Positions 1,498-21,406 of a stretch of DNA of 22,203 nucleotides are shown one piece after another. Made by a program: the position numbers and the translations under genes. The notes under the pieces were generated by a model. The model was not told where the DNA came from, did no database searches, and was given only the letters and a program-made list of their open reading frames with translations. Within the stretch, counting starts at the first letter, position 1, and the number at the start of each line of letters is the position of its first letter. The stretch is from Promethearchaeota archaeon (GTDB taxonomy: Archaea > Asgardarchaeota > Lokiarchaeia > Sigyniarchaeales > SOKP01): the NCBI GenBank assembly GCA_048941265.1, contig JBHLNT010000065.1:1-22203 (forward strand), given 5' to 3'.

Positions 1498-4047
1498 TTA
1501 CAGCTTAACCTTCTTATTTTTAGCACCCTCGATTATTTTTTTGCATAAATTTATTCCCAATCCAGTTTTGCGATTTAAAATGTATGGTTTTTCCCTTGCA
1601 ACTTGAGGAGCAGTATGATAACCTGCATCATATAAAATTCTTGCCCTAATTCTGCCCACATTATCAATTCTTAAGACGAGATCGAACAATTCTTCTCGAA
1701 TGCCGTAATGTAATCTTAATTTCAGAGTTTCTACCATCTCTGCTATTGAAATCATTTTATCTTGCAATTCGACATCACTAATACTTAAATGACTCGCAAT
1801 AATCCCTATAAAATTTATTATTCTTCCTAAATTATCTCGTATAGAATAAAAATCACCTGCCATAATACCATACCGCTCTAAGATTCTTTCAATCGGTTCC
1901 TCATCAGCCCATTCTATAATTGGTTCCAACATTTTAAAATCTCTCACTCGTTCTTCTATTCTTAGCACTTCATAAGCTTCTTTTATTAAATCCTTGAACG
2001 TATAAATTTCCTTATCTTCAAGCTGCTGCCGGATTAATACACCAGATCCGGGATTTAAATATAATCTAATTATTAATTTACCAAATTGTGAGCAATAAAT
2101 TTCATTATTTTCGTTTTTTATAATTAATCCTTTCTCAAAAAGGTAATTTAAGATATATTGATTTTTTATAGCTTTTGGAATGATATCATTCATATATTTT
2201 TGAAAATTAATATCTGGCAAATTAAGAAGATACAATAAAAAAATTGTAACGTGATCACAAAATTCAAAAGAAAAATTTTGATCAACAAAATTATCTGATA
2301 TTCTATTCTGAAATCCACAGGAACACTTTATCCCAGAATCAATATCGAATTGACAGGTATATACTCCAAAATCAGTTTTTACATATCCAAGCAAATTAGA
2401 GTTAGTGACTTTTGATAATTTTACTTGGTAATTACTAGTTTGTAAAAACTGCACTTTTTTTGGATCAGAATGAAGTTTTAATATGTTTAAAGGAGAAATT
2501 TCCTTAATCATAAGTAGCTGATCTATTGGTATGCTCTGTTCTCTCATTTTATCTTTAATTCCGTACCAAAAGTATGTTCTTTTAAAAAATTCTTTTAGAT
2601 TCTCCATCGATATTCGTTTTTCTTCATAAATTCTTAACAGGACTTGTTCTTTAAGAATATTAATTTTGTTTAAGCCTGAAATTAGATCATTATATTTTGG
2701 TACTGCCTTATTTCCTTCCAAAAATTTATGAAAATAATGGTCCTCTATCCATAACCTTTCTTCTACATTACTCACTAACATAATACCATATCCAATTGAA
2801 TCAAGTCCGGGTCTTCCCGCTCTACCTAACATTTGAAATATTTCATTTGCGTTAAATGGCAAGAAATAACTAAATCCATCACCATTTTCATGAAATCCAG
2901 AAAAATTTTTAATATTATATCCTGATGTCACATATTTCTTAAAATCCTTTAAAATTACAACTCTAGCCGGTAGATTAATACCAGCTGAAAGAGTAGTAGT
3001 ACAACAGATTACTTTAAGAATCTTTTTTCGATAATTATCCTCTATTAACTTTCTTTCCTTGGGTAGAAGCCCCGCATGATGAAAGGCAATCCCTGATTTT
3101 ACAACTTTTATTAAATCATTATTTGCTCCCTTAATTTTGTGTATTTTTTTTTCTAATGTTTTACATACACTCAATTCTTTTTCTTCTAAATGTTTTTTAA
3201 CTAAGTGTTTAAGGTTTAGAGCTTGTTGTTGTGCAGAATTTCTTTTATTTAGAAATATAAGAACTTGTCCTTTTTTGTTCAAAGTCTCCTTTACTAATTT
3301 TTTTATAGTAGAATCCTTATTTTGAGTGATTTCAATCCTAAAATGGAGCGGTACAGGCCTTTTCTCAGATTTTATCAGCATAGTTTTATTTCCTAAAGAG
3401 GATAGCCAGGAATTAAAGAATTCTGCATTTGCTATAGTTGCTGATAATCCTATAATCTGTGGATGGTATAAAAACTCATTCAACCTTACGATTAAAGATT
3501 CTATGCGAGGTCCTCTATTACTATCACCAATTATGTGAATTTCATCAACAATAATCGTAGAAATATCAAAAATCCAATCTTTATCATAAAAATTTCTCAA
3601 AATTGAATCCATTTTTTCATAAGTAGTAATGATAATATCTGCTTTCTCTAATTTAGCATCACTAATATCATAATCTCCAATTGATAATTCAACGTTGACT
3701 CCAAATCTTTGATATTTTTTTTTAAAATGAAGATATTTTTCAGTAGCAAGCGCTTTAAATGGAACTAAATATATTGATTTGCCAAAATCTTGAAATATGT
3801 TGTAGATCGCGCATAATTCCCCGATTAAAGTTTTGCCAGATCCCGAGGGAGCACAAATTAAAAAAGATTTCCTAAAAAAAAGTCCTTCTTTAATTGCATC
3901 TTTTTGAATATCCCTTAATTTGAAAATTCTTGACTCAAATAATACTCTAAGAATTCTCTCATCACAGATAAACTTAAAAATTTCTCTATCTTCTTTAGAA
4001 TTCTTATCTAAACCCCTAACGTTTTTATCATAATTGGTAATAGTTAT
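1498..4047 (-). CDS. hel308: Hel308/Ski2-like SF2 DExH helicase with internal SWIM Zn finger (about 849 aa; non-canonical ATA/ATT start; ORF track start at 3612 is truncated)
   Basis: The frame stays open from 3612 up to 4059 and encodes the Q motif (LRDIQKDAI), Walker A (APSGSGKT), motif Ia (YLVPFKALATE) and Ib (TTYEK). Downstream are DEIH, SAT, FHHAGL, TTTLSAGINLPA, QMLGRAGRPG and a C-terminal HhH with the RAR motif (VGRIRARILYDAG). SD GAGGTG lies at 4061-4056. Could be a paralogue rather than the Hel308 orthologue. Confidence 0.9.
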   Translation of the reverse strand: MTITNYDKNVRGLDKNSKEDREIFKFICDERILRVLFESRIFKLRDIQKDAIKEGLFFRKSFLICAPSGSGKTLIGELCAIYNIFQDFGKSIYLVPFKALATEKYLHFKKKYQRFGVNVELSIGDYDISDAKLEKADIIITTYEKMDSILRNFYDKDWIFDISTIIVDEIHIIGDSNRGPRIESLIVRLNEFLYHPQIIGLSATIANAEFFNSWLSSLGNKTMLIKSEKRPVPLHFRIEITQNKDSTIKKLVKETLNKKGQVLIFLNKRNSAQQQALNLKHLVKKHLEEKELSVCKTLEKKIHKIKGANNDLIKVVKSGIAFHHAGLLPKERKLIEDNYRKKILKVICCTTTLSAGINLPARVVILKDFKKYVTSGYNIKNFSGFHENGDGFSYFLPFNANEIFQMLGRAGRPGLDSIGYGIMLVSNVEERLWIEDHYFHKFLEGNKAVPKYNDLISGLNKINILKEQVLLRIYEEKRISMENLKEFFKRTYFWYGIKDKMREQSIPIDQLLMIKEISPLNILKLHSDPKKVQFLQTSNYQVKLSKVTNSNLLGYVKTDFGVYTCQFDIDSGIKCSCGFQNRISDNFVDQNFSFEFCDHVTIFLLYLLNLPDINFQKYMNDIIPKAIKNQYILNYLFEKGLIIKNENNEIYCSQFGKLIIRLYLNPGSGVLIRQQLEDKEIYTFKDLIKEAYEVLRIEERVRDFKMLEPIIEWADEEPIERILERYGIMAGDFYSIRDNLGRIINFIGIIASHLSISDVELQDKMISIAEMVETLKLRLHYGIREELFDLVLRIDNVGRIRARILYDAGYHTAPQVAREKPYILNRKTGLGINLCKKIIEGAKNKKVKL

Positions 4048-4064
4048 TACTATTACACCTCAGA

Positions 4065-4376
4065 TTAATATGGATTTGACCACTTTATCATGAATTGCTT
4101 GAACGTATCAAAATTTCTTGAGATTTCTATGCTCTTAATCAATCCTATGCTTCGTACATTCAAATGTTTATCTATATAGCACAACAGTGCGTGAAGTGGA
4201 TTTCCATGTAAGTGAATATGAGGATATGGAAATTTTTCATACTCAGATAATTCTTTTAAAGTATCCATCTCAATACCAATTTCAATTCGTTCCTTACATA
4301 AAGGGCAAACTTGAACATTTTTTAGGTGTTGTTTTAAATCCCCGTAATTTTTCTTCCTTTTTGATGATATAGCCAT
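4065..4376 (-). CDS. Small putative Zn-binding hypothetical protein (CPxC...HxHxH...H...YID...VR)
   Basis: 103-aa ATG ORF with CPLC and a His cluster (PHIHLHGNPLHALLCYID). Its stop lies 3 nt before the helicase SD, so it is probably co-transcribed. Confidence 0.7.
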   Translation of the reverse strand: MAISSKRKKNYGDLKQHLKNVQVCPLCKERIEIGIEMDTLKELSEYEKFPYPHIHLHGNPLHALLCYIDKHLNVRSIGLIKSIEISRNFDTFKQFMIKWSNPY

Positions 4377-4503
4377 TACAATTCAATTTTATCTTTTTTA
4401 TATTTCATTAGGATTCTTTTTATTTAAAAAAAAAATGACAAAAATGAAGAGGAGTGATTCTTAAAATTCTTAGTGCTGAAAAATAAGCAATTATAAGAAG
4501 GGA

Positions 4504-4621
4504 GACTCCTGCCAACAGACCTAAATACAAGGTCGATAAAATTATAGGATCAGTAGGGCAAAATCAGAGTGTAAAAACTTACACTAACCAAAAGACAAAA
4601 ATCCAGGGTGTGGCAGGAGTC
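4504..4621 (-). ncRNA. Candidate structured RNA or leader element 1 (unassigned family)
   Basis: Perfect 11-bp inverted repeat GACTCCTGCCA 4504-4514 / TGGCAGGAGTC 4611-4621 in AT-rich intergenic DNA. It encloses hairpins GACCT/AGGTC (4518-4534) and AGTGTAA/TTACACT (4568-4585). G-U extensions favour the minus strand. Confidence 0.4.
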
Positions 4622-4936
4622 ATTTTTATATAACATTTTCAATTCAATGTTTTTTCTCTTTAATAATCTTTTATTTGAAAATCATTTAAATTTTATCTTC
4701 ATATTTTAGCATAAGCTTTACAGCATAATAAATAAGATGATAATTCAATATTTATTCATATTTTGATTTAATCATGCACTTTTTTATTTATCTGGATTAA
4801 AATATAAAGACTAAACATATTTTTATGAATAAAATAGGATCAATTTTATTAAAAATTACATTAACAAAGATAATTAGGACATTATTTTAAATGGGTTATT
4901 ATTTATCTTAAAAAAACTATTAAAATTAGAATTAAA

Positions 4937-5164
4937 ATGAAAAAAAAACACGGAACATGTTTAGTGTGTGGCGGGAATATCATCTATGATGAAGAGTCTC
5001 AGAATTTTAAGTGTTTTGATTGTGATGCGAGTCATTCATCAGATTTGTTTAAAACATATGAAAAGATGGGCAAACGTTTGCATTTACCTAGACTGAGAAT
5101 CTTATTTGCCATTCTTGGAGCCTTATATTTGTTATTTTGGTTGTATTGGGTTTTAATTTATTAA
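4937..5164 (+). CDS. Small Zn-ribbon protein with C-terminal transmembrane helix
   Basis: 75 aa; CLVC...CFDC pair plus a terminal hydrophobic stretch ILFAILGALYLLFWLYWVLIY. Confidence 0.7.
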   Translation: MKKKHGTCLVCGGNIIYDEESQNFKCFDCDASHSSDLFKTYEKMGKRLHLPRLRILFAILGALYLLFWLYWVLIY

Positions 5165-5198
5165 TCCCAACTTAATTCCCCGTAATATATATAGGGCT

Positions 5199-5618
5199 TT
5201 AAATAATTCTGGAGATTCTGGATAGTGGATGCCCCTTGGCTTTCATCTCAAGTTCATTAAACCATCCAAAAGGAGGTCTCATAACAGTAAAACCTTTTTT
5301 TCTTAATAAGGATGCAAGTTTTTTCAAGCTTTCTAAACCAAATTCAGGAGAGCTTAATTGTCCAAAAAGGTGAGCAAATGAAAGTATTACGATATTAGAA
5401 ACTTTTAGTTGATTAATTATTTTTTCTATTTCACGAATGCATTTTTCAATAAAGTCCGGTTTATCTTCATCCTGCTTTTCAACACAGATGAATAAAACAA
5501 TCACATTTTCTAGCTTACCTTCCTTATTTTCTTCTGTTAATTCTTCATAGACCTTAGAACGACTCCTTTTAGTGGCCATATAATTGAAATATTCACAATG
5601 AAAAGAAAGAAATCTCAT
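5199..5618 (-). CDS. Free-standing archaeal-type threonyl-tRNA synthetase editing domain (DTD-like fold)
   Basis: Signature motifs MRFLSFHCEYF, FICVEKQDE, FAHL, PFGW and KGHPLS; 139 aa with no catalytic or anticodon-binding domain. Confidence 0.9.
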   Translation of the reverse strand: MRFLSFHCEYFNYMATKRSRSKVYEELTEENKEGKLENVIVLFICVEKQDEDKPDFIEKCIREIEKIINQLKVSNIVILSFAHLFGQLSSPEFGLESLKKLASLLRKKGFTVMRPPFGWFNELEMKAKGHPLSRISRII

Positions 5619-5656
5619 TTACATCTTTTAAAATGCTTTCTTTTAAAAATTTTTCT

Positions 5657-6115
5657 TTATTTTACTGATTCTAAAAATGGTATAAATTTGTCCAATGTTA
5701 CCTTTGCTCCTATCTTAGACGGAATATTTACTGCTTTTTTAACATCATCGTAAGAATACCGTTGATCAAATAACTTCTGGATTGCCGGTGAAAAAATTTC
5801 TTTATAATATTTTTCTCCTATTTTTTTAATGATTTTATCAAAATCTTTTGTAGTGACCCATTTTTCTTTTTTTCGATGAATTACGGACACTCCTTTTTCT
5901 TTCCCTTTCTGCTCAACTTGATATTTTTGTGCTTTTTTGCCTAATCGTGCTTGATACCCCACTATTGCGATAACTATTCCATGAATCTTCGCTTCCTCCT
6001 CACTATGTCCGTTTTTTAGCCACTCAATCCTATGATATTCTGAGATAATATCCCACTTCCCGATCTGAACGGATTTGATCTCATTAAGCTCTTTTTCTGA
6101 GAATTTTTTCTCCAT
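5657..6115 (-). CDS. Hypothetical protein (152 aa)
   Basis: ATG ORF with upstream GGAGA, host-like codon usage, co-oriented with neighbours; no motif recognised with confidence. Confidence 0.7.
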   Translation of the reverse strand: MEKKFSEKELNEIKSVQIGKWDIISEYHRIEWLKNGHSEEEAKIHGIVIAIVGYQARLGKKAQKYQVEQKGKEKGVSVIHRKKEKWVTTKDFDKIIKKIGEKYYKEIFSPAIQKLFDQRYSYDDVKKAVNIPSKIGAKVTLDKFIPFLESVK

Positions 6116-6256
6116 AATAGCTTATTATCTCCATTTCATTTTATAGTAAAAAACTATGAGGTCTAAGAATATATTTCCTCCTCGTGTATTTTAAAATATC
6201 CTTTCAATTTTAAAGAAAAGTTAAAAATTAATCCATATAAATCGAAAGCATATAGA

Positions 6257-6478
6257 TTATCTTAAGATATCATCTTCAGAATAATCTTTCTTAAGATCCA
6301 TTCCACAACTAGGACATTTCAATATCGGCAAAGATTCACTTTTATAGAAATAATCGATCATAGGAGCAACATACTCATTAGAGCAATCAACGCAAACCCA
6401 TTTTTTACATTCAGAATTTAAGCACTGAAAAATTCTGGCTTCATCCCCACAAATCGAACAAATCCCTATTTTTGTCAT
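6257..6478 (-). CDS. Stand-alone 8-Cys cross-brace Zn finger (PHD/ADD/RING-like), 73 aa
   Basis: C-x2-C-x8-C-x4-C-x4-C-x2-C-x22-C-x2-C pattern in the translation. Confidence 0.75.
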   Translation of the reverse strand: MTKIGICSICGDEARIFQCLNSECKKWVCVDCSNEYVAPMIDYFYKSESLPILKCPSCGMDLKKDYSEDDILR

Positions 6479-6624
6479 ATTTTAATCAAATTTATTAGGT
6501 ATATTATTTCATGTAAAGAATAGTAAAAAAATTTATACTTTTTCGAATAGAATTGATTTAAAATTATATCTTAGCCTTTAATTATCTGCTTTATGCAAAT
6601 AAATATAAATTTGAAAATAGGAAA

Positions 6625-6735
6625 AGAAGGAAATCCAAATCCAATCCAAAATGCAAAAATAAAGAGAGGGTTAAACTTCCAAAAAGTCTAACAAGGGCGA
6701 AATCCAATATAGGACCGAATTTTTTGATTCCTTCT
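6625..6735 (-). ncRNA. Candidate structured RNA element 2 (unassigned family)
   Basis: Terminal stem AGAAGGAA 6625-6632 / TTCCTTCT 6728-6735. Internal hairpins at 6670-6692 and 6701-6716 pair through G-U on the minus strand. A TATA-like TTTAAATA (6766-6759) lies about 25 nt upstream and a U-rich tail follows. Confidence 0.35.
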
Positions 6736-6875
6736 CAAGTGATCAAATTGAGATAAGATATTTAAATATGCTGTATATAAATTATAAAGGATAAGCTAAA
6801 TCTATTTTCACTCTATTCGTCCTTGATATAGATCAGATTATGATAGATAGATTAATGAATAATAAGAAAGAATAA

Positions 6876-6887
6876 AAAAAAAGGGAG
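6876..6887 (-). terminator. Putative oligo-U terminator after rubredoxin
   Basis: Minus strand reads CTCCC followed by a T run about 25-35 nt after the rubredoxin stop; archaeal intrinsic terminators are U-tracts. Confidence 0.35.
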
Positions 6888-6911
6888 ATTTTCAATTAAT
6901 TTTTAAGATAT

Positions 6912-7049
6912 TTAACTAATCTTTTCAAACATATCTTTACCTACCCCGCAAACTGGACAGGTCCAATCATCGGGGAGATCCTCAAATTTAGTTCCTTCTG
7001 CATCTTCGTCGTAAACATAACCGCATGCTTGACATTCCCATTTAGCCAT
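6912..7049 (-). CDS. rub: Rubredoxin, short-loop type (45 aa; absent from ORF track)
   Basis: Manual translation [45 protein letters not shown], with canonical CxxCGY...[14 protein letters not shown]. Confidence 0.95.
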
Positions 7050-7249
7050 ATTCAACACAAATTTTTCTTTTAATTTTATAAATTGTAACTTATGGATTTT
7101 AATTGAATCTGTATTAAAAATATTAATTTAATATTTTATAAAAATATCTAATTTGACAAGGAGATTTGCCTTTAAAAATGAATTTTCTGCCATATAAAAT
7201 TATGTGAATTGAAAAAGTTATTAATAAATACACAACGATAGAACACACT

Positions 7250-8641
7250 ATGAATGAGATACCCACTATTGAAAAAGAAGTAAAGTTACGACGAGAATTG
7301 GGTTTATGGTCTGTCATATTTTTTGTCTATGGATATGTAGTTGGAGCTGGCATTTTAATTCAAACAGGAGTTACTGCTGGTGTCACAGGTCCAGCTTTGT
7401 GGCTTGCTTTTTTAATAGCAGGAATACCTGCCGTTATAGGTGCGATTCTTATTTGTTATGTTGTTTCCGCATTTCCGGTTAGCGGAGGCGCTTGGGTTTA
7501 TAGTTCAAGATTAGGTTCTCCGTTTATTGGTATGATTGTTGTAGCTACAGTGATATTAAATATTATTGGAGGATTAGCATTATTAGCTTTAGGATTTGGA
7601 GTCTATTTTGAGGTTTTTATTCCAGGATCATTTTTAATAGTAGCTATATTGATATTAATAATCTTTTATATCGTCAATATTTTTGGGATTAAATTTACTA
7701 GTTGGTTGCAGATATTACTTGCGATTTGTGGAGATTTTCTGGTAATTTTTATTTTCATCATATTTGGATTACCCCATATAGATATAAATAAACTAAAGGG
7801 GACTGGTACAGGCGGAATGTTTCCAATGGGGATTATTGGCATCTTTATGGGCGCTGTAATTTTAAGTTTTTCCTATCAAGGTTTTACCGCAGTAGCTGAA
7901 ATTGGTGGAGAAATAAAAAATCCGAGAAAAAACATACCATTAGGATTATTAATTAGTTTTTTTTTAATTGCTACTGTTTACATATTAGTTTCTATTGTCA
8001 TGACAGGAAATATGGATTGGAGAACATTAGGCGAAATAGAGGGGAATTTAGTTGACGTAGCAGCATTATTCTTTCCTCCATGGGTTCTAATCTTCTTAAG
8101 TATCATGATTTTAATCGCTATAGCTTCCACGATTCATGGGATTCTCCTAGCTTACTCCAGAAACCTTTTTAGCGCTGCGCGTGATAAGTTATTACCATCC
8201 TTTCTAGCGAAACTTAATAAAAAATTTAAGACCCCTCATTGGTCTATAACGATATTCGTAGTTGGAGCAATAATACTCCTATTCTTTCAAGCTAGTATAA
8301 TAGACCTATCAATTGTATTAGCATTTACAGGCTCAATTACGGCACTAATACTTGCATTGGTTCCTCTTAAACTGGAAAAAAAATTTCCTGAACTTATTGA
8401 GAAATCCCAATTCAAACTAAGCAGGAAGGTTTTAGTGGCGTGTGTAGTTATTAACGTCGCATATGCCATTTTATCGCTTATTTTAATGGTATTAATTTCT
8501 CCTATTGCAGTTTTGATTTCTTTATGTTTTTATCTTGGTGCTATTGTCTATTATGTAATAAGAAAGAAGTGGCTTGCTAAAAAAGGGATAGATTTGAAGG
8601 AAATTTGCAGAACAATCCCTGAAGAAACCCTCGAAGTGTAA
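7250..8641 (+). CDS. APC-family amino acid/polyamine permease
   Basis: About 12 TM segments; LRRELGL, VVGAGI (TM1 unwound motif), GGAWVY, FSYQGF..AEIGGEIKNPRKNIP, SRNLFSAARD.LLP. Confidence 0.93.
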   Translation: MNEIPTIEKEVKLRRELGLWSVIFFVYGYVVGAGILIQTGVTAGVTGPALWLAFLIAGIPAVIGAILICYVVSAFPVSGGAWVYSSRLGSPFIGMIVVATVILNIIGGLALLALGFGVYFEVFIPGSFLIVAILILIIFYIVNIFGIKFTSWLQILLAICGDFLVIFIFIIFGLPHIDINKLKGTGTGGMFPMGIIGIFMGAVILSFSYQGFTAVAEIGGEIKNPRKNIPLGLLISFFLIATVYILVSIVMTGNMDWRTLGEIEGNLVDVAALFFPPWVLIFLSIMILIAIASTIHGILLAYSRNLFSAARDKLLPSFLAKLNKKFKTPHWSITIFVVGAIILLFFQASIIDLSIVLAFTGSITALILALVPLKLEKKFPELIEKSQFKLSRKVLVACVVINVAYAILSLILMVLISPIAVLISLCFYLGAIVYYVIRKKWLAKKGIDLKEICRTIPEETLEV

Positions 8642-8726
8642 GTATAAAATCTTAATACTTAATTTTTATTCTTAATTTGGTAAAGTAAATTATATTCACT
8701 TTTTGATATTGGAGAATGATTAAAAA

Positions 8727-10337
8727 TTGGAACGTTTAATATTTTTTGGCGGACCTATCATTACTATGAACGATAGTCATTTGCTCATTGAAGCAGTGGG
8801 CATTGAAGGTGATAAAATAATAGCAGCGGGCAATTTGGAAGAAATTAAAAACAAAATTGGTAATAATTATAAATTAATCGATCTGAATGGATGTACGCTA
8901 TTACCAGGCTTTATTGATTCCCATTTTCATATTGTCCCAATTTTGTTTTTTTATGTTTTTCTTAATCTCGCTGAGGTTAAGAGTTTAAAGGAGCTTAAAG
9001 AGCAATTGATTCAAACTGTTCATAAGAAAAAACCTGGTGAATTCATATACGGTCTAAATTTAAAGGAGGAACAATTTGAAGACCTTGAAGAAAGAGTTCT
9101 ACCAAATCGCTTTTTGCTAGACGATATTTGTCCAGATAATCCCGTGTTCCTCTTACGGTACGATGGACATGTAGGTGTTGTAAATACCAAAGCGTTAGAA
9201 TTAGCTGGAATTGATAATAAAACTATATCACCTGAAGGCGGAGAGATTAGACGAAATGAAAAGGGTGAAATCACGGGTGTTTTGTCTGAAAATGCCACTT
9301 CCTTAATTATGACAAAGGTTTCACTCCCGGATCCCGATGAGATAATGAAAGCGGCAGCGCAAGCTTATCGAGATTTAGCGGTTGAAGGTATAACTTCTAT
9401 TCATGGAATTGTCGAATTAGATAAAGAGGGTGGAGTGGTAAACCTCGGAGGTCTTGAAATCCCCCTATTGAAAACGATGAAAGATAAAATACTTCAAGAT
9501 TGGTATGGGATTGTCTATACTGCCGAACCGAAAAAATTAAAACGACTGCAAAAACCTCCCTTGGATGATGGTAAATTAGACAGTAGATTTAAAATTGGAT
9601 GCTTAAAATCTTGGTTTGACGGTACTTTTGGAGCCGCCACAGCTCTTATGTTAGAACCTTATTCAGATCATCCAGAAAGCAGCGGTTTTTCAGTTATTGA
9701 CGAGGGTGTTCTATATGAAAGGATGGTAAAGGCTCATAACTTAGGATTTCAAATCGCCTTGCATGCAATTGGCGATAAGGCAAATCAGACCGTAATCAAC
9801 TTGTATAAAAAGCTTCTAAGTCAATACCCTCGAAATAACCATAGACATAGAATCGAACACGCATCAATGCTTACCGCAGAAATGATAAAGGATATGAAAG
9901 ATTTAGGTTTAATAGCCTCGTGTCAACCACCCTTTATTAATTCTGAACATAGCTGGTTAGAGAAACGAATAGGCAAGGAACGATGTATAATTACTTACCC
10001 TTTTAAGTCACTGATTAAGGCGGGAGTGATTATTGCGGCAGGTTCAGACGGACCTGTTGAGAATCCAAACGTAATTGATGGTATACATGCAATGGTTCAT
10101 CGAAACGGCTTTGTTCCCGAGGAATGTGTGTCGATTATGGATGCTTTAAAAGCATATACGATTAATGGAGCCTATGCAGCATTCCAAGAAGAGATTAAGG
10201 GGAGTATAGAGGTTGGAAAATTAGCAAATTTTGTCATCTTGAATAAAAATCCCCTTGAAGTCCCAAAAGAAGAGATAAAAAAAATTCAAGTTCTGGAGAC
10301 CATTATAAGAGGAAAAACAGTATTTAAAAAGAGCTGA
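8727..10337 (+). CDS. YtcJ-like metal-dependent amidohydrolase (Amidohydro_3)
   Basis: PGFIDSHFH, DGHVGVVNTKAL, ALHAIGD, HRIEHAS, GSDGP, GSIEVGKLANFVIL; TTG start after GGAG. Confidence 0.92.
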   Translation: MERLIFFGGPIITMNDSHLLIEAVGIEGDKIIAAGNLEEIKNKIGNNYKLIDLNGCTLLPGFIDSHFHIVPILFFYVFLNLAEVKSLKELKEQLIQTVHKKKPGEFIYGLNLKEEQFEDLEERVLPNRFLLDDICPDNPVFLLRYDGHVGVVNTKALELAGIDNKTISPEGGEIRRNEKGEITGVLSENATSLIMTKVSLPDPDEIMKAAAQAYRDLAVEGITSIHGIVELDKEGGVVNLGGLEIPLLKTMKDKILQDWYGIVYTAEPKKLKRLQKPPLDDGKLDSRFKIGCLKSWFDGTFGAATALMLEPYSDHPESSGFSVIDEGVLYERMVKAHNLGFQIALHAIGDKANQTVINLYKKLLSQYPRNNHRHRIEHASMLTAEMIKDMKDLGLIASCQPPFINSEHSWLEKRIGKERCIITYPFKSLIKAGVIIAAGSDGPVENPNVIDGIHAMVHRNGFVPEECVSIMDALKAYTINGAYAAFQEEIKGSIEVGKLANFVILNKNPLEVPKEEIKKIQVLETIIRGKTVFKKS

Positions 10338-10468
10338 TTTTTTTTCCTCTCATTTTTCTGAAAGTTTATGCTTTATCAGAATTATCTATAAACTGGAAGT
10401 GTCTTATTTTATAAATGAAAGGGTAAACTATATTACTAAATTATTTGTAGAAAATAGTGAATTAAAAG

Positions 10469-10873: not shown

Positions 10874-10941
10874 AATAATATTGAGCACATATAATTTAAT
10901 CTTGAGTTTTAAGTTTTTACTAAAATAGTGAAGAAAAAATT

Positions 10942-11924: not shown

Positions 11925-11969
11925 ATTTTTTAACGCATTTTCTTTTTTTATTTATTAATATATATATCT

Positions 11970-13322: not shown

Positions 13323-13375
13323 TTTTTAATGATTTTTCTTCTTATTTTAAGGTTTTTATTATGAGTTGTTAATTT

Positions 13376-13385
13376 GAACATGTTC
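13376..13385. promoter_or_regulatory. Palindrome GAACATGTTC between divergent redox genes (candidate operator)
   Basis: Perfect 10-bp palindrome near the centre of the 119-bp divergent intergenic region. Confidence 0.3.
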
Positions 13386-13450
13386 GCAAGTAAAAATATA
13401 TTCCGCTTGGTTTATTTTTAACTTAAGAAATTAAAAGAGGTATGATAAAA

Positions 13451-14236: not shown

Positions 14237-14369
14237 TTTAAATAAACTTGAAAGTTAAATCCAATTTTTTTGCCATATTTTTTTATTTATTAACGTTTCA
14301 GATAATACCATTCATATTAGTCTTTATTTTAAAATACTATTAAATATTAAAGGATAATTTTTATTTAAC

Positions 14370-14381
14370 AATAACGTTATT
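14370..14381. promoter_or_regulatory. Palindrome AATAACGTTATT upstream of GRE gene (candidate operator)
   Basis: Perfect 12-bp palindrome just downstream of a TATA-like TTTTTATTTAA and 32 nt before the TTG start; a related TAACGTT occurs at 14291-14297. Confidence 0.3.
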
Positions 14382-14413
14382 ATAATTAGGGAAGATTTTA
14401 CGAGGATTTAAGA

Positions 14414-16810
14414 TTGGTTTCTAAAACACCCATGAAAAGAACTATAAAATTAAAAAATAATTTGCTCTCAAGCTCCTATGATTTATGCGTGCAGCGGCTT
14501 AAATTTTTTACTGAAATTTATAAAATTAATGAGAATGAGCCCGAAATCATAAAAAAAGCCAAAGCTATCTCTTATACATTAAATAAAATGAAAATTTTCA
14601 TCAGAGATGATGAGCTACTAGTTGGTAATGAGACAAGTAAAAATCTTGGTGAAAAATTAACATTTGAGCTATATTCTTTTAAGGGATTTAAAGATAAAGA
14701 AAGTTTGAAGCAATTAGGAGTACGTAAACCACAACCTTTCCTTATTTCAGATGGAGAAATTGAAAATTTGATTCGAATTATTCCTTTTTGGAAAGGAAAA
14801 TCGCTCTACGATGATATTATCTATAAAAGAATGCAAGATGAGAAGATAATAACAAGAGATGACAATACAGCCGGGTCTGCTCCGAATATTGCCGTAATGG
14901 TCGGAACTAATGAGGGCCATATTTGTGCGGGGTACGAAAAATTATTGAAATTAGGTTATTCTGGCATAATTAAAGAAGCAGAATATTTTCAAAAGAGATT
15001 GAAGCAAGATGACCCTGAATATAAAGAAAAATGTACGTTTTATGATGCTATTAAGATATATTATCGCGCAGCTATAGAATTTGCGCTTCGATATTCTAAA
15101 CTTGCTTATAAAATGGCTAAAAGCGAAAAGAATTTTAAAAGAAAAAGCGAATTACATTCAATTGCAGAATGTATGGAAGTTATCTCAAAAAGAGCACCAA
15201 TTTCATTTTATGAGGCGATTCAATGTATATGGTTTACTCAAAATATAGCAAACATTATTTATTATCGGAGTGTTCTAGCTTTAGGCAGATTAGATCAAAT
15301 CTTGTGGCCATTTTATCATAAAGATATTAAGGATCATAAAATAACCAGAGAACATGCTTTAGAGCTTATAGAAGAATTAAACTTAAAACTAACCTGGAAT
15401 TGTACATTACTACCTACAAATTATACAGCAGCAGCGAACGCGATTGGTTTAAATACGCAAACAATAACGATTTCTGGAAGTGATAAAAAAGGAGCTGATG
15501 CCACGAATGAACTCTCCTACTTATTCTTAGAAGCCTATAAAAACATAAAATCTCTTACATCAGATCTTTCAATCAGAATCCATAAAAATACACCTAAGAA
15601 ATTTTTTCTAGAAGCTTTAAAGGTGTTTCAATCTACCTCTGGAATCGCTTTTTATAATGACGAAATTATAGTTCCGGCATTAAATAAGGCAGGATATTCA
15701 ATAGAGGATGCTCGGAATTATGTGATTATTGGCTGTGTAGAGCCCACATCCCAAGGAAATACATATGCAGCCACTGGACATATGTTTTTAAATTTACCAG
15801 GTGTATTGGAATTAACGCTTAATAATGGCTATAGTCATTTTTCTGGTCAGAGTGATGGACTACAAACTGGAGATCCTGCCAGCTTTAAGACATATAATGA
15901 TTTCTATAAAGCTTTCACAATACAACTTCAGTTTAATATTAAAAAGGCAGTCCAAATTGCTAATTTAATGGATGAAGAAGCAATTAGGTGGTGTCAACAG
16001 CCATTTATCTCCGCAACACTCGAGGATTGTTTAGAAAATGGAAAGGACTATACTCAGGGAGGAACAAAATATAATTTCTCTTCAATTACTGCTTTCAGTT
16101 TTGCTAGTTTAGTAAATTCGATGTATAATATAAAAAAATTGGTCTATGAGCAAAAATTAATGACTTTACCCGAATTCATCAATATTTTAAATGCAAATTT
16201 TAAAAAACAAAAAGTACTTCGCAAGGAATTATTAAATAAATATCAAAAATGGGGTAATGACCAAGATGAAATAGATGCTATGGCAGCTGAATTATGGGAC
16301 CTTTATTGCCAAGAAGTAATTAAACATAAACCTCTTAGAGGAGGTCGATTCAATCCAGGTGCTTATTCAATGGGTATTCATGTTTTAGAAGGTTTAATTA
16401 CTATAGCTTCTGCAGATGGTAGAAAATCATTTCAGCCTTTATCTAACAGCTTATCCCCGGCTAATCAGACTGAAAAGCATGGCATCACAGCAGCATTAAA
16501 TTCTATCTCGAAATTAAATTATTCATTAGCAACTAATGGGGTGGCGGTAAATATGAGATTTCATCCTCAAAATCTTGAGGGAAGTGAGAATTTAGAGAAA
16601 TTCTATTATCTTATAAAAACCTATTTCGAGAAAGGTGGCATGCAAATACAGCCTACAGTTGTTTCTACTGAAACCCTTAGGGATGCTCAGAAACATCCTG
16701 AGAATTATCCCGATTTAATAGTAAAAGTGGGAGGTTATAATGCAAATTTTACCGATCTTGGCACTGCTATCCAAAATGACATAATTGATCGTTTAGAAAT
16801 TAACTTATAA
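14414..16810 (+). CDS. Glycyl radical enzyme (PFL2/PflD-like single-Cys class, substrate unknown)
   Basis: IRDDELLVG, LGRLDQ.L.PFY, DATNELSYL.L, Cys loop IGCVEP (C441), Gly loop LIVKVGGYNANF (G774), QNDIIDR terminus; SD GAGGA. Confidence 0.93.
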   Translation: MVSKTPMKRTIKLKNNLLSSSYDLCVQRLKFFTEIYKINENEPEIIKKAKAISYTLNKMKIFIRDDELLVGNETSKNLGEKLTFELYSFKGFKDKESLKQLGVRKPQPFLISDGEIENLIRIIPFWKGKSLYDDIIYKRMQDEKIITRDDNTAGSAPNIAVMVGTNEGHICAGYEKLLKLGYSGIIKEAEYFQKRLKQDDPEYKEKCTFYDAIKIYYRAAIEFALRYSKLAYKMAKSEKNFKRKSELHSIAECMEVISKRAPISFYEAIQCIWFTQNIANIIYYRSVLALGRLDQILWPFYHKDIKDHKITREHALELIEELNLKLTWNCTLLPTNYTAAANAIGLNTQTITISGSDKKGADATNELSYLFLEAYKNIKSLTSDLSIRIHKNTPKKFFLEALKVFQSTSGIAFYNDEIIVPALNKAGYSIEDARNYVIIGCVEPTSQGNTYAATGHMFLNLPGVLELTLNNGYSHFSGQSDGLQTGDPASFKTYNDFYKAFTIQLQFNIKKAVQIANLMDEEAIRWCQQPFISATLEDCLENGKDYTQGGTKYNFSSITAFSFASLVNSMYNIKKLVYEQKLMTLPEFINILNANFKKQKVLRKELLNKYQKWGNDQDEIDAMAAELWDLYCQEVIKHKPLRGGRFNPGAYSMGIHVLEGLITIASADGRKSFQPLSNSLSPANQTEKHGITAALNSISKLNYSLATNGVAVNMRFHPQNLEGSENLEKFYYLIKTYFEKGGMQIQPTVVSTETLRDAQKHPENYPDLIVKVGGYNANFTDLGTAIQNDIIDRLEINL

Positions 16811-16844
16811 TTAAATTCACTTACTTAATAAGTTGGTGTAATTA

Positions 16845-17657
16845 CTGAAAATAGCGTTATTTTATTTTTCTGGAACTGGAAACACTGAAAGAATTGCGGA
16901 AGCAATTGCTAATGAATTGACAGAAAAAAATGTTGAGATTAATAATTTTAATATTACGAGCTATAAGGAAAGGCAACAAAATTATGACCTAGCTTCATAT
17001 AACGTTATAATTTTCGGATTTCCGATATATGCATGGAGGGCTCCATCGGTTGTAAGAACTTGGCTTAAATCTTTAAATGGAAATGGAAAAAAATGTGCTA
17101 CTTTCTTTACTTATGGAGGGGTTTCTACAGGTGTAGCTCATTATAATACTATGAAAATTTTAGAAGGGAGTAATTTTATTCTCATTGGATCTTCAGAATT
17201 TCCTGGCAAACATACATTTAACTTAGCAGGATGGAATTTATTAGAAAATCGCCCTGACAAGGGAGATTTCGAAATTGCTAAAGAGTTTGCAAGAAAAATT
17301 TTGAAAAAATTTCAAGAAAAGGATTTTAATAAAATAGAAATTGGAGATCCTACTATTTCAGAGCAAATTCTTGAGAGACACGAGAAACGAGAGAAAAATC
17401 TTCCTACACCATCGAGGAGAGGAGCAGATTGCAGTATGTGTCGAACCTGTGAACAAGTTTGCCCTTCAGGGGCAATGAATGCAGATACAGGGGAGGTGGA
17501 TAATAATAAATGTCTAAGATGCTTAAGATGCATGATTAATTGCCCTGACAATGTATTAGAAATAGCAGATATGAGTAAGCTAAGCAAATTCATTTTAAAT
17601 GCAAATAATATTACTAAAAATGAGTTAGAAAGAAAAGTAAGTAAAATTTATTGCTAA
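16845..17657 (+). CDS. EFR1-type flavodoxin-ferredoxin fusion (270 aa; CTG start; ORF track start at 16917 is truncated)
   Basis: Extension of the frame gives (M)KIALFYFSGTGNTERIA, the FMN phosphate loop, then GFPIY and TYGG, and C-terminal CSMCRTCEQVCP / CLRCLRCMINCP. In-frame stop at 16839-16841; GGTG 6 nt before CTG. Confidence 0.9.
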   Translation: MKIALFYFSGTGNTERIAEAIANELTEKNVEINNFNITSYKERQQNYDLASYNVIIFGFPIYAWRAPSVVRTWLKSLNGNGKKCATFFTYGGVSTGVAHYNTMKILEGSNFILIGSSEFPGKHTFNLAGWNLLENRPDKGDFEIAKEFARKILKKFQEKDFNKIEIGDPTISEQILERHEKREKNLPTPSRRGADCSMCRTCEQVCPSGAMNADTGEVDNNKCLRCLRCMINCPDNVLEIADMSKLSKFILNANNITKNELERKVSKIYC

Positions 17658-17699
17658 TTTCATTTAATATGGTATTATGAAAGGATATTGAATATAATT

Positions 17700-18353
17700 T
17701 TATCCCTCAAACATTATTTTTTTTTTAATTATTTTTCTCAACATTACTGATAACGCAGATTTCGATTTCCCCAATTGGTTTGCCAGTTCTTCTAAAGAAA
17801 TTTTTCTAGGAACTTCAAAAAATCCTTTATTTATCGCCTGTTCTAGAACTTCAGATTCTTCCAAGCTTAATTTATTTTTACCATCAGTAATTTCGAATGG
17901 AGCATTTCCTATTCTAAGTAATTCGTAATTAATATGTTTTTCATCGAATAAAGTTAATAATTGATCTATCCTGTCTCGCGTGGCAATCAATCTCCAATAT
18001 GCATGGCCATCTCTTACATTAACCGGGAAATTGACAAGTACTCCACATTTAATTACACCATATAATAAATAAGGATCTTTTGTTTTTACATTAAATTTAA
18101 CTCTATGTTCCTCCTTTTCTAAAAGACTGAATTCCAAGACAGAAGGATGGTTTTTAACCTCTTCTAAAATATCATCAATTTTATAATGTTGTATTTCAAT
18201 TAAAGCATTTCCAATAGAGTTTTCTATATCATATGGTAAGAAATGAGAGATTTCCATTTGCAGGTCTTTATAATTTTTAAAGATCTGAGAAATCCAGATT
18301 TCCTCAGGAAATTTGATTTTTACACGGGCCAAAGATGGTTTCTCGAGAGTCAT
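17700..18353 (-). CDS. Bat-type (HTH_10) transcriptional regulator
   Basis: C-terminal LS.EESEVLEQAINKGFFEVPRKISLEELANQLGKSKSALSVMLRK is the bacterio-opsin activator HTH signature; ATG 18353 preferred over TTG 18371. Confidence 0.88.
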   Translation of the reverse strand: MTLEKPSLARVKIKFPEEIWISQIFKNYKDLQMEISHFLPYDIENSIGNALIEIQHYKIDDILEEVKNHPSVLEFSLLEKEEHRVKFNVKTKDPYLLYGVIKCGVLVNFPVNVRDGHAYWRLIATRDRIDQLLTLFDEKHINYELLRIGNAPFEITDGKNKLSLEESEVLEQAINKGFFEVPRKISLEELANQLGKSKSALSVMLRKIIKKKIMFEG

Positions 18354-18479
18354 ATTTAAAAAAAATAACAAATTTAGTTTTTTTCTATGTCCTATTTAAG
18401 ATTAATTTAATGTTCCCAATGATTCATTCTTCAAATATTTTTAATCTTTAAAGTATCAATAGATTTTTTCATTACACTA

Positions 18480-19406
18480 TCATTTTGGATCTAATCGAAA
18501 TTTCATGTTATCTTCTCCCAATATAATTTCTCCATCAAAAACATCGGAAACACCTTTCAAATAAGTGTCCTCTGCCAATTTATTTGTTAATGGAGGTACA
18601 ATATGGACATATACAATTTTTTTTACATTAGCTTCTTTAGCTAATTCAGCAGCAACAATAGGTTCCATGTGATATTCTTGGATATCTGTCATAATTTTAG
18701 CTAATCTATTAAGATTACGTGATTTTGCCCCAGCAATCACAGGCTTCAACATATCATAAGAAATGGCTTCACTAAAGAGAATATCTGCATCCTTACAATG
18801 CTTAACGAGATTCTCTGTTTTTATCGTATCACCGGTTATGGTAACAATTCTTCCTTTAAATTCTATCCGATAGCCTATAGCGGGTTTTACAGGAGAATGA
18901 TCCACTTCAAATGCATAGACTTTTAGTTCATTTCTATCAAAAACTAATTCTCTCTTATTAGGAGCTTGTATTGAAATAGTTTTGCTTATAGGTGTACCTG
19001 CTTCAGGTGGCATAATGTCTTTCCCATGATGGGCAATTCTATATCCTGTATCAAATTCATAGGCCATTATAAATCCGTTCACAACTTTTTCCACGCCCTC
19101 AGGGCCGTATATTTCCAATGCTTTTGCTCTTCCCATAGCCCAAGACAACATATTCGCCTCTCCAAGATCTCCAATATGATCTGAATGAAAATGGGTAAGA
19201 AATATAGCACTTAGATGCGCTGCTGGAAGTCTCAATATATCAAGATTTCGGTATGATCCCGGTCCAATATCAACAAGAATAAATTCCCCATTTGCTATAA
19301 TTGCAATACTTGGAGCAACTCTTAAATTATTGTTAATTGGTCCACCGCTACCTAATAGAAAAATGTGTAGACGTCCATCTCTTAATATTTTATCTAAACT
19401 CATCAT
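18480..19406 (-). CDS. MBL-fold metallo-hydrolase, RNase Z/arylsulfatase-like
   Basis: LLGSGGP, VDIGPG, THFHSDH, VDHSPV, ITGDT, YH, VH motifs. Confidence 0.9.
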   Translation of the reverse strand: MMSLDKILRDGRLHIFLLGSGGPINNNLRVAPSIAIIANGEFILVDIGPGSYRNLDILRLPAAHLSAIFLTHFHSDHIGDLGEANMLSWAMGRAKALEIYGPEGVEKVVNGFIMAYEFDTGYRIAHHGKDIMPPEAGTPISKTISIQAPNKRELVFDRNELKVYAFEVDHSPVKPAIGYRIEFKGRIVTITGDTIKTENLVKHCKDADILFSEAISYDMLKPVIAGAKSRNLNRLAKIMTDIQEYHMEPIVAAELAKEANVKKIVYVHIVPPLTNKLAEDTYLKGVSDVFDGEIILGEDNMKFRLDPK

Positions 19407-19580
19407 AACTCTTAAATTACCGATTATCTATTTATTCTATTTTTATAATATGAATATTAAAACAAAAATAAGAGTATTTTAATTTTGAATCAAGATATAC
19501 CAATTTAAATCATTTAATTATTTACTTATTTCCCAATAAAGTTTATAGTCGATAGCTTTAATTTTAAAAAAAACATAAAA

Positions 19581-20186
19581 ATGATTATGAGTCAAGATGA
19601 AAATTTCCTTTTGGGTATATGCGGAAGTCCAAGAAATCAAGGAACTGAATTTGCAGTTCATTACGCTTTGAATTACGCAAAAGAAAAATTCGGATTTAAA
19701 ACAGAATTTTGGACCGCTAGAGCAAAAGAGATAAAGTTCTGTATACATTGTGATTATTGTATTCGAGAAAAAAAAGGATGTATTCATAAGGATGATTTAC
19801 AGGATCTCTACCCTTTAGTAGAAAAGTCAAAATTTCTTCTCTTAGGCACTCCAGTTTTTCAAGGTAATTTATCAGGACAATTAAAGACCATAATGGACAG
19901 AATGCGAGCGTTAATAGCTAAAAATCCAGTTGTTTTCAAGAATAAAATAGGTATGGCATTAGCAGTTGGAGGGGATCGTAGTGGAGGACAAGAAATTGCA
20001 ATTAGATCTATTTTAGATTTTTTTCAGCAAAATCATGTGATATCAGTGTCGGGTGGTGCTTTTGGGGCAAATTTAGGGGCAAGTTTATGGACAAAAGATT
20101 TAGGTAAAAAAGGAGTTGAGAGTGATGAAGTAGGTCTAAGATCAATTAGAAAAGTTATAAAAAGGTTAGCAGAATTTAAAAAATAA
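19581..20186 (+). CDS. Iron-sulfur flavoprotein (Isf-like, NADPH-dependent FMN reductase fold)
   Basis: GSPRNQGT, compact CIHCDYC-x6-C cluster motif, GTPVF, DR, GGDRSGGQE. Confidence 0.92.
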   Translation: MIMSQDENFLLGICGSPRNQGTEFAVHYALNYAKEKFGFKTEFWTARAKEIKFCIHCDYCIREKKGCIHKDDLQDLYPLVEKSKFLLLGTPVFQGNLSGQLKTIMDRMRALIAKNPVVFKNKIGMALAVGGDRSGGQEIAIRSILDFFQQNHVISVSGGAFGANLGASLWTKDLGKKGVESDEVGLRSIRKVIKRLAEFKK

Positions 20187-20449
20187 CTAATTTAAAGTTA
20201 AATTATTTAAATATTAACACCATTAACAAAAAAGTGAGCAAATTGTTGTCCCTAATAGATTACTCTTATCTTGTTAGAAGTTTAAAAATAATTATTTTGA
20301 TAGATTTTAATTTGATATTATTTGATATTTTTCCTTTTTTAATTCAACCGTAAAATTTAGTTTTTAAATGTTTATTTTTAAAGAATTTTATTTATATATG
20401 AAATTTACTTCTTAATAAAAAATAAATACAATTAGAGGAGTGAAATTTT

Positions 20450-21406
20450 ATTAGTCAAATCCAAATAACTTTACCAAATGAGCGTAAAGAATTAATAGAT
20501 AAAATCTTATTAATTTTAAAAGAACAACTTGGAATTAAAAACTTGATTTTAATTACAGCTGAAAAGAACTCGCTTATTATTTTGAGATGTCAAAGAACTG
20601 AAGTACCTGATGTTATTAAATTACTCAATAAAAATGGGATTGGGACCATTGAAGGTTTAATTGATATTTTAAAGCTTAGTGCATCAATCCCTCCTATTAG
20701 CATGTTAGAGAAAGAACAAGATAAAACAATTGAACCATCCTATAAAAAAAGAGTATCAATAGAAGAAATAGAACAATATCTGGAAGGAAAAATTCAATTA
20801 AATTTTAATTATATTATCTTTATATTATTATCTGCTATTATTGCGGGAGCAGGACTTATCTTAAACTCCCCAGTCTTCATCATAGCTTCCATGATTTTAT
20901 CTCCCTTAATAGGTCCTATTCTGGGATTATCATTTGGAATAGTAAGTAAAAACAAACCTATGGTTAAAAAAGGAATTATTAACCAAATAATTGGTTTGTC
21001 ACTTTCCATAGGAATAGGATCATTATTAGGGATTTTAGCCATTATCATCTATGGAACCCCAGAAGTAACAACAGAGATGTTGTTAAGGAATTTTCCCAAT
21101 TATTTTGATATAATTATCGCTATATGTGCAGGAATTGCAGTAGGTTTTGTGATAACGGAGGATATTAAAAGTACATTAATAGGTATTGCTATAGCAGCTT
21201 CAATTACCCCTCCTGCTGTAAATATTGGAATTAGTTTAATTTATAACGAATGGAGCTTATGTTTTGGAAGCTTATTACTACTTATCGCAAACATCCTTAT
21301 AATAAATATATGTGCTGTATGTGTCTTTAAACTAAAGAAAATAGGTAAAATACGGCAACCATATATATTTTGGAGAGGGCCTGAAGAGACTATTGATAAT
21401 GAGTAA
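20450..21406 (+). CDS. DUF389 / TIGR00341-type membrane protein (318 aa; ATT start; ORF track start at 20543 is truncated)
   Basis: IA..GL..NSP..IIASMILSPLIGP and GIAIAASITPPA motifs. The frame opens after the TGA at 20441-20443 and reads (M)SQIQITLP; SD GAGGAGTG lies 7 nt before the ATT. Confidence 0.88.
   Translation: MSQIQITLPNERKELIDKILLILKEQLGIKNLILITAEKNSLIILRCQRTEVPDVIKLLNKNGIGTIEGLIDILKLSASIPPISMLEKEQDKTIEPSYKKRVSIEEIEQYLEGKIQLNFNYIIFILLSAIIAGAGLILNSPVFIIASMILSPLIGPILGLSFGIVSKNKPMVKKGIINQIIGLSLSIGIGSLLGILAIIIYGTPEVTTEMLLRNFPNYFDIIIAICAGIAVGFVITEDIKSTLIGIAIAASITPPAVNIGISLIYNEWSLCFGSLLLLIANILIINICAVCVFKLKKIGKIRQPYIFWRGPEETIDNE

Follow-up and report, generated by a model that had tools for sequence, protein, structure and literature searches.

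Probable Shine-Dalgarno-guided ATA, ATT and ATC translation starts in an Asgard archaeal genome and its near relatives

Can genes of an Asgard archaeon begin at ATA, ATT or CTG, and if so, is this a habit of the lineage or an accident of a few loci? The question is raised by a stretch of 22,203 nucleotides from a Promethearchaeota archaeon (GenBank assembly GCA_048941265.1, contig JBHLNT010000065.1; hereafter the window), in which three genes, encoding a Hel308/Ski2-type helicase, a flavodoxin with a 4Fe-4S dicluster and a DUF389 membrane protein, are read from ATA, CTG and ATT, respectively, each behind a Shine-Dalgarno (SD) motif (Table 1). The original prediction, made from the letters of the window, was that this lineage has relaxed, SD-guided start selection. 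The window is contig C321 of a 5.0-Mb metagenome-assembled genome (MAG; G000) of 361 contigs, with a GC content of 0.305, a completeness of 91% and a contamination of 4.8%; the host, which the prediction had left conditional, is Asgard, the relatives of the helicase being labelled Promethearchaeota, Lokiarchaeota and with other Asgard names in their sources. Such near-cognate sites are, on the comparison of sequences given below, very probably real SD-guided translation starts in G000 and its near relatives. ATG, GTG and TTG are called canonical throughout.

The letters and positions of all three sites are exactly as predicted, and all three were recovered independently by an SD-anchored scan of the whole genome, at offsets from the SD of 9 (helicase), 7 (flavodoxin) and 7 nucleotides (DUF389). 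The 16S rRNA of G000 ends in ...GGATCACCTCCT (also quoted as ...GGAUCACCUCCU), which gives AGGAGGTGATCC as the SD consensus. In the helicase leader the spacer is 8 nucleotides and the last G of the SD lies 9 nucleotides before the ATA, canonical starts using 5–11; the first canonical codon of the frame (ATG 3612) is codon 150 from the upstream stop. The Pfam DEAD domain (PF00270, 6e-30) occupies residues 50–211, so that a start at ATG 3612 would delete Walker A; together with PF00271 (Helicase_C) and PF21280 (Helicase_dom4_arc) it marks the protein as Hel308/Ski2-like. In the flavodoxin leader the spacer is 6 nucleotides, the first canonical start (TTG 16917) lies past the FSGTGNT loop, and the Pfam profiles Flavodoxin_5, Flavodoxin_3 and Flavodoxin_1 begin at frame residue 6; matches to Flavodoxin_5, Flavodoxin_4 and Flavodoxin_3 (flavin mononucleotide, FMN, loop) and to Fer4_7 identify a flavodoxin-ferredoxin fusion, the putative EFR1 of the prediction. 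In the DUF389 leader the SD GAGGAGTG is followed by a 7-nucleotide spacer; the scan found the ATT at offset 7 with an SD length of 5, and the first canonical start (TTG 20543) comes 31 codons further on. As PF04087 (9e-34) is limited to residues 150–289, Pfam is uninformative on the start of this gene, and the orthologues settle it. The predicted lack of any canonical codon between the upstream stop and the conserved N-terminus is thus borne out by Pfam for the helicase and the flavodoxin, and by orthologues for DUF389.

The helicase was compared at 20 loci (own included) from the genus, family and order, the homologous first codon being identified by eye as the one that opens their common N-terminal motif, (M/I)-(T/S)-(I/L)-x-x-(F/Y). 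It is ATA, ATT or ATC in nine loci (ATA in the window, L004, L012 and L013; ATT in L005, L006 and L008; ATC in L002 and L007), ATG in 10 and TTG in one (L010); GGTG stands 7–8 nucleotides upstream in most of the nine. A public collection holds the product of the window gene (P0001) as 851 amino acids beginning MVITIT, from ATA 4053, only 2 nucleotides past the SD; ATA 4047 agrees better with the alignment of orthologues and with SD spacing. The prediction that standard gene callers would truncate such proteins therefore stands in part only, this product being already of full length. For DUF389, 10 loci were compared: at the homologous codon the window gene has ATT, L047 and L050 have ATG, L049 and the G000 paralogue L054 have ATA, and L048 has ACG, with an ATG also following 15 codons on; the remaining four are distant homologues with canonical starts. 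At the flavodoxin (25 loci, own included), all 24 other loci have a canonical start at most 17 codons after the upstream stop, and three orthologues of the same genus read TTA TTG AAA where G000 reads TTA CTG AAA, so that the CTG, a T>C change of a TTG start, is private to G000. The non-canonical codon is therefore conserved in orthologues, with ATG in others, for the helicase and DUF389, and not for the flavodoxin. Just upstream of the latter the frame (16833–16841) reads TTG GTG TAA, two in-frame canonical starts cut off by a stop within the SD spacer; the GGTGTAA arrangement is kept in two congeners.

For the genome-wide scan, SD matches (at least 5 nucleotides of AGGAGGTGAT) heading frames of at least 100 codons were collected, with an in-frame stop at most 25 codons upstream, no canonical start before the SD and one count per frame; near-cognate ATA, ATT and ATC were counted at offsets 7–10. 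The leaders of 1795 confident ATG starts show an excess of G between −14 and −8, with the last G of GGTG peaking 8 nucleotides before the start. Canonical starts head 408 of the SD-led frames, ATA, ATT or ATC 90, CTG five and neither kind 102. By codon the tally is ATG 297, TTG 86, ATT 48, ATA 32, GTG 25, ATC 10 and CTG 5: ATT and ATA are the third and fourth commonest start codons behind an SD, the near-cognate preference is ATT > ATA > ATC, and CTG is rare. At the non-canonical sites, in-frame ATA, ATT and ATC make up 70/153 at offsets 8–9 vs 75/788 at offsets 13–24 (Fisher p = 6e-24). With SDs of at least 6 nucleotides, 37 of 54 sites carry one in frame at offset 8, vs 2/39 when read out of frame there, and in-frame offsets 11, 14, 17 and 20 give 4, 9, 4 and 3 of 54. 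When all codons were compared at offsets 7–9 of sites with no canonical start, the four most enriched were ATT (46 of 197 vs 32 of 788), ATA (31 vs 32), ATC (10 vs 11) and CTG (4 vs 3). SDs of 4 nucleotides show a smaller excess (125/550 vs 366/2848), and the share of near-cognate starts grows with SD length. The spacing peak at offset 8 is common to canonical and near-cognate starts, and the SD is complementary to the genome's own 16S 3' end. The base after the start codon did not separate near-cognate starts from background.

After background subtraction, about 110–130 genes with near-cognate starts are estimated among 5024 frames of at least 100 codons (2–3%), and such starts make up about 18% of genes with an SD of at least 5 nucleotides. 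Near-cognate use is thus genome-wide, as predicted, at a rate that the window (three of about 23 genes) overstates. Approached from the other side, 35 of the 58 frames of at least 150 amino acids whose first canonical codon lies at least 60 codons in have an SD and a near-cognate codon upstream. Raw counts of SD, spacer and codon, taken regardless of open-frame context, gave nothing: they are swamped by 3-periodic coding sequence and are unusable for pattern scans across genomes.

A different source of relaxed start-codon need would be termination-reinitiation from the upstream gene, that is, translational coupling in place of SD-guided de novo initiation. The helicase would suit it: its SD begins 3 nucleotides after the TAA of the 103-amino-acid gene upstream, whose C-terminal ...KWSNPY* is found again in front of the helicase in several relatives. 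Coupling is, however, not enriched at near-cognate starts, a same-strand frame of at least 80 codons ending between −40 and +6 nucleotides at 19/90 of them vs 139/408 canonical starts, and the DUF389 gene is preceded by about 250 nucleotides of non-coding DNA. Coupling as the general explanation is very unlikely.

Protein domains bear on whether translation could instead begin further on. Thirty-nine candidates have an SD of 5 nucleotides or more, lie 18 codons or more ahead of the first canonical start and encode at least 150 amino acids; two of these are window genes, and the other 37 were scanned against Pfam. In 17 of the 37 a domain starts upstream of the first canonical start, and in many of these profile position 1–4 falls 2–21 residues past the near-cognate codon. 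They comprise five genes of the Ras family (from residues 2–11), adh_short (from residue 7), ATP_bind_1 (from residue 6), ABC_tran (from residue 20), CheR_N (from residue 10), a TFIIB zinc ribbon (from residue 25), polyprenyl_synt, TPR, Abhydrolase_1, SGL, ADC, Hexapep and AA_permease_2; a weak Ish1 match is also listed. That Ras-family small GTPases account for five of the 17, and that two TFB/TFIIB-like genes are among the candidates, may mark an enrichment or simply mirror family abundance.

These domains speak against the view that the true starts are the first downstream canonical codons, or leaderless, and that an upstream SD with ATA or ATT is coincidence in an AT-rich genome. Coincidence has some points in its favour: ATA, ATT and ATC are about 10% of in-frame codons, SD-like strings are common within genes, and one candidate, with a PHP domain, fits its downstream ATG better. 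Downstream starts would, on the other hand, leave the helicase with no Walker A and the flavodoxin with no FMN loop, and would cost the 17 further genes, for example, five Ras P-loops and an SDR Rossmann motif; the enrichment is specific to offset and frame and is absent from a genome of another Asgard family at the same GC (G064, below). We regard this alternative as extremely improbable.

Conservation between congeners points the same way as the domains. Ten near-cognate starts of a genome of the same genus (G001) could be mapped to G000, where nine are again ATA, ATT or ATC and none is ATG; of 15 ATG starts so mapped, 11 are ATG, three TTG and one ATA. This bears on the objection that the three window cases stem from faulty sequencing or assembly, or from ATG or TTG starts inactivated by recent mutation in pseudogenes in the making. 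In its favour are the flavodoxin CTG, which a single transition separates from the TTG of the three closest orthologues, and the state of the MAG (361 contigs, 4.8% contamination). Yet the helicase and DUF389 show such start codons in other species too, in independently made assemblies, about 90 genes show exactly the same geometry, the congeners agree in nine cases of ten, and the frames of the three window genes are intact over 270–850 codons. Two runs of one study have Logan contigs over 14474–17081 and 15881–17546 with 0 differences, and a further contig spans 19951–20600, also with 0 differences; the CTG and the ATT are hence no quirks of the G000 assembly, though these runs may be its source. 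Error or decay has only a minute chance of accounting for the three cases; for the flavodoxin CTG alone, a recent weakening mutation is possible.

The same scan was applied to 400-kb samples of other genomes, with in-frame ATA, ATT and ATC compared between offsets 8–9 and 13–24 as above. The congener G001 (GC 0.306) gave 32 canonical and 15 ATA/ATT/ATC starts, with 11/19 vs 12/100; G038, of the sister family (GC 0.300), 28 and 11, with 8/12 vs 7/68; and G032, also of the sister family (GC 0.308), 41 and 3, with 2/10 vs 5/48, which is not significant and much lower than in G038 (p = 0.017). In the samples of three other Asgard families the signal was not detectable: G064 (GC 0.303) gave 34 and 2, not significant; G074 (GC 0.42) 85 and 5, with 1/28 vs 15/144; and G096 (GC 0.48) 103 and 5, with 4/41 vs 13/192. 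G096 has at most a faint signal, with 4-nucleotide SDs only (CTG 7/184 vs 4/736; ATC 16/184 vs 27/736). The predicted lineage-wide use of SD-guided near-cognate starts is supported by G000 genome-wide, by its congener and by G038. As G064 shows no signal at equal GC, the habit is not a by-product of AT-richness or of the method; as far as these sequences go, it is specific to certain lineages, and AT content is no explanation.

The most serious competitor on this point holds that the sites are neutral debris of AT mutation pressure, rescued by a strong SD, with no lineage-specific change of stringency and no regulatory role. The low GC (0.305), the single G>A change that turns ATG into ATA and the rise of the near-cognate share with SD length all agree with it. 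It is countered by G064, which has the same GC and SD use and no enrichment, and by the level of G032, well below that of G038; by the lead of ATT over ATA, even though it takes a transversion to turn ATG into ATT; by the congeners, which swap ATA, ATT and ATC and never to ATG (0/10); and by a near-cognate start of aIF1 (ATT, ATC or ATA) fixed across more than 30 genomes of the family. We think it unlikely. That ATA and ATT are read differently, through reassignment to methionine or RNA editing to AUG, has in its favour only the analogy with mitochondria, where AUA means methionine. Three different isoleucine codons and CTG are involved here; the genome uses ordinary frames and all three stop codons (TAA 2243, TGA 400 and TAG 355 in 2998 frames of at least 200 amino acids); and ATA and ATT are abundant inside genes (about 10% of codons) whose proteins match Pfam families normally. 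This reading deserves next to no credence.

The start of aIF1 itself is of special interest. The sole SUI1/aIF1 gene of G000 (C112:9670-9996, minus strand) has an apparent ATT start, with an SD-like motif, AAGGTTGTGA, 10 nucleotides before it; the zinc knuckle CSLCG...CVC lies before the first canonical codon, a GTG inside CVC. In 21 readable loci of the family the homologous codon is ATT, ATC or ATA, and 18 of these have no canonical codon before CxxC; among further loci of the family 10 of 11 are alike, and one has a GTG inside the SD. Both AAGGTTGTGA and its 10-nucleotide spacing to ATT or ATC are kept in the family though the spacer sequence varies. Outside the family, where starts were read by eye, the sister family has ATA (G030, G034, possibly G037), TTG (G025, G032, G036, G038, G040), GTG (G039) and ATG (G035); of the more distant families, f6 and f9 have CTG, f11 ATA, f7 ATG (GTG in G099), f24 GTG, and f10 and f19 ATG.

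In three other Asgard families aIF1 apparently starts with CTG or ATA (L160 and L162, in G042 and G053; L169, in G096; L170, in G047), again with no canonical codon before the zinc knuckle; the CTG starts follow GGAAGGTG by 7 nucleotides or AGGAG by 10, and the ATA stands behind AGGAGG. The start codon of aIF1 as a predictor of the habit was rejected, G096 having an apparent CTG on aIF1 and yet at most a faint signal.

The original prediction had looked to the initiation factors for a cause. To this link one fact can be added, the apparent ATT start of aIF1 itself; no causal substitution was found. The initiator tRNA gene was located by motif on C212 (minus strand, near 14400); it is interrupted by an intron directly behind the anticodon loop and probably by another. 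ARAGORN found 10–12 tRNAs in the MAG and the Rfam tRNA model 22; a GGG-CTTATAA-CCC string on C92 was discarded as a candidate initiator tRNA, as it stands outside any tRNA context.

Several observations weigh against the conclusion that these are SD-guided starts under a lineage-specific stringency. The comparison samples are small (400 kb), and G000 vs G064 alone gives p = 0.065. The sites were found through their SDs, so that SD guidance is partly built in and SD-less starts are missed; with a background of about 10% in-frame ATA, ATT and ATC, perhaps 15–20 of the 90 calls are due to chance. In the Pfam check, the PHP-domain candidate (1/37) favours its downstream ATG, seven of the 37 have domains only downstream, and 12 have no match at E <= 1e-5. 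Two helicase orthologues offer canonical alternatives: L004 has an ATG 14 codons further on, and in L007 the SD itself contains a GTG. The flavodoxin CTG is unique to G000 among its 25 loci. As to mechanism, loop-1 of aIF1 does not, by eye, clearly set genomes rich in near-cognate starts apart from poor ones, and it looks alike in G038 (rich) and G032 (poor); both have TTG on aIF1, so that the aIF1 start codon alone is no predictor of the habit; and the initiator tRNA, with an ordinary CAU anticodon and a G-C-rich anticodon stem, revealed no mechanistic cause. Weighed with the frame- and offset-specific enrichment, the domains and the conservation, these points leave SD-guided initiation by far the best-supported reading.

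How such starts might work can be sketched. Pairing of the SD with the 16S 3' end (...GGAUCACCUCCU) would position the small ribosomal subunit and set the codon some 7–8 nucleotides downstream into the P site, where the ordinary initiator tRNA (CAU) would be accepted on AUU, AUA and AUC, which mismatch at the third position only, and more rarely on CUG. Near-cognate starts would be weak, probably a built-in brake on protein output, and may be kept by selection as weak starts, with no free drift to AUG. If aIF1 is made from a weak start, the cell could tie start-codon stringency to the level of aIF1, as with infC and eIF1; the ATT start of aIF1 fits, and does not prove, such self-limiting synthesis of a fidelity factor. 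We infer initiation at these codons, insertion of methionine, low efficiency and any aIF1 feedback from sequence patterns. Going further, it can be suggested, with more doubt than conviction, that the clade (the family and part of the sister family) reset its cell-wide stringency, with AUU, AUA and AUC as selected weak starts and the set-point given by the AUU-started aIF1, and, as part of the same tentative suggestion, that this reset is the archaeal counterpart, possibly the forerunner, of eIF1-controlled near-cognate initiation in eukaryotes.

Autoregulation of a fidelity factor is familiar from bacterial IF3, with the AUU start of infC, and Ivanov et al. (2010) reportedly described it for eukaryotic eIF1, which has a poor start context. 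Like these, the gene for aIF1, the homologue of eIF1, itself appears to bear a weak start, with no canonical codon before the zinc knuckle; unlike eIF1, it would depend on an SD and a near-cognate codon and not on Kozak context, the feedback being putative in archaea. In a further difference, outgroup Asgard families carry ATG, GTG, CTG or ATA on aIF1. Mitochondria with AT-rich genomes use AUA, AUU and AUC, the same three codons as G000, as regular starts; in contrast to G000, they have no SD, a modified tRNA-Met reads AUA, and AUA is reassigned to methionine in many.

Bacterial SD-led AUU and AUA starts include infC and pcnB of Escherichia coli and infC (AUA), cvfC1 (AUU), ccpN (AUA) and citZ (AUA) of Staphylococcus aureus, the closest published case found being the four AUA and AUU starts of S. 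aureus, which stand behind extended SDs and give about 10% of AUG output in reporters (PMC13009471). The sites in G000 resemble these cases in that a near-cognate codon, differing at its third position, follows a strong or extended SD at the normal distance, in being conserved among relatives and missed by gene finders, and in including the gene of a fidelity factor (PMC13009471). They differ in number, four sites in S. aureus vs about 90 here (SD of at least 5 nucleotides), in being predictions from sequence here, and in that initiation would rely on archaeal aIF1, aIF1A and aIF2 with Met-tRNAi, not IF3 with fMet-tRNA. In ribosome profiling of Haloferax volcanii, about 30% of putative alternative initiation sites were at near-cognate codons, which the authors set aside as possible false positives; these are alternative sites and not sole starts of conserved genes, and the accessible part of the report describes no lineage-wide genomic signature (PMC7261190). 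Reviews on Lokiarchaea say, in the parts available, only that SDs are rare there. The full-text literature searched, with subscription journals and supplements outside it, yielded no report of AUH (AUA, AUU or AUC) starts in Asgard archaea or of an AUU-started aIF1. As far as these searches show, the mechanism is known in kind, and what is new is the scale, the host and the extension to aIF1.

Some further features of the window are added here. Three more genes had been predicted to start with TTG. This agrees with TTG 8727 and TTG 14414, where the scan places an SD-like 4-mer at 10 and 7 nucleotides, respectively; for TTG 1285 an SD was looked for upstream and none was found, and TTG 18371 is probably not a start, its frame more likely beginning at ATG 18353. 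An intergenic element of 125 nucleotides (window 4498–4626, plus strand) is closed by an 11-bp stem (GACTCCTGCCA...TGGCAGGAGTC), folds far better than shuffled sequence (z = −4.5) and had no match in Rfam; it recurs once at C218:7671-7797 (85% identity) and as partial copies on C125, C352 and C57, and the summed contig depth reaches about 900 at the element vs about 10 in its flanks. A 116-amino-acid open fragment (C125:2480-2821, plus strand) is 70% identical to the helicase N-terminus and adjoins one of the partial copies (C125:1909-1972, minus strand), which suggests partial duplication of the helicase locus.

Table 1 Features of the window named in the text. Positions are those of the forward strand of the window; leader elements are listed below their genes.
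Feature	Position	Strand	Remarks
Hel308/Ski2-type helicase, 849 codons	1498..4047	-	read from ATA 4047-4045; Pfam
SD and stop of helicase leader	4056..4062	-	SD GAGGTG 4061-4056 overlapping in-frame TGA 4062-4060
103-amino-acid gene upstream of helicase	4065..4376	-	no Pfam family; TAA stop 4067-4065
536-amino-acid gene	8727..10337	+	TTG start behind GGAG
Glycyl-radical enzyme (PFL-like) gene	14414..16810	+	TTG start behind GAGG; Pfam
Flavodoxin + 4Fe-4S dicluster protein	16845..17657	+	read from CTG 16845-16847
SD and stop of flavodoxin leader	16835..16841	+	SD GGTG 16835-16838, in-frame TAA 16839-16841
DUF389 membrane protein	20450..21406	+	read from ATT 20450-20452
SD and stop of DUF389 leader	20435..20443	+	SD GAGGAGTG 20435-20442 overlapping in-frame TGA 20441-20443

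For work on genomes of this clade, a gene finder that accepts only ATG, GTG and TTG would, in each genome, cut short or drop the N-terminal ends of about a hundred gene products, including Ras-type GTPases, TFB, aIF1 and helicases, which distorts domain and signal-peptide calls in studies of eukaryogenesis. How strictly start codons are chosen is one of the features by which bacterial-type and eukaryotic-type initiation are defined against each other. An archaeal lineage equipped with eukaryote-like factors, whose eIF1 homologue itself appears to stand under a near-cognate codon, would be a natural system in which to study the evolution of aIF1/eIF1 proofreading and autoregulation, and would turn a handful of bacterial curiosities into a phenomenon of genome scale.

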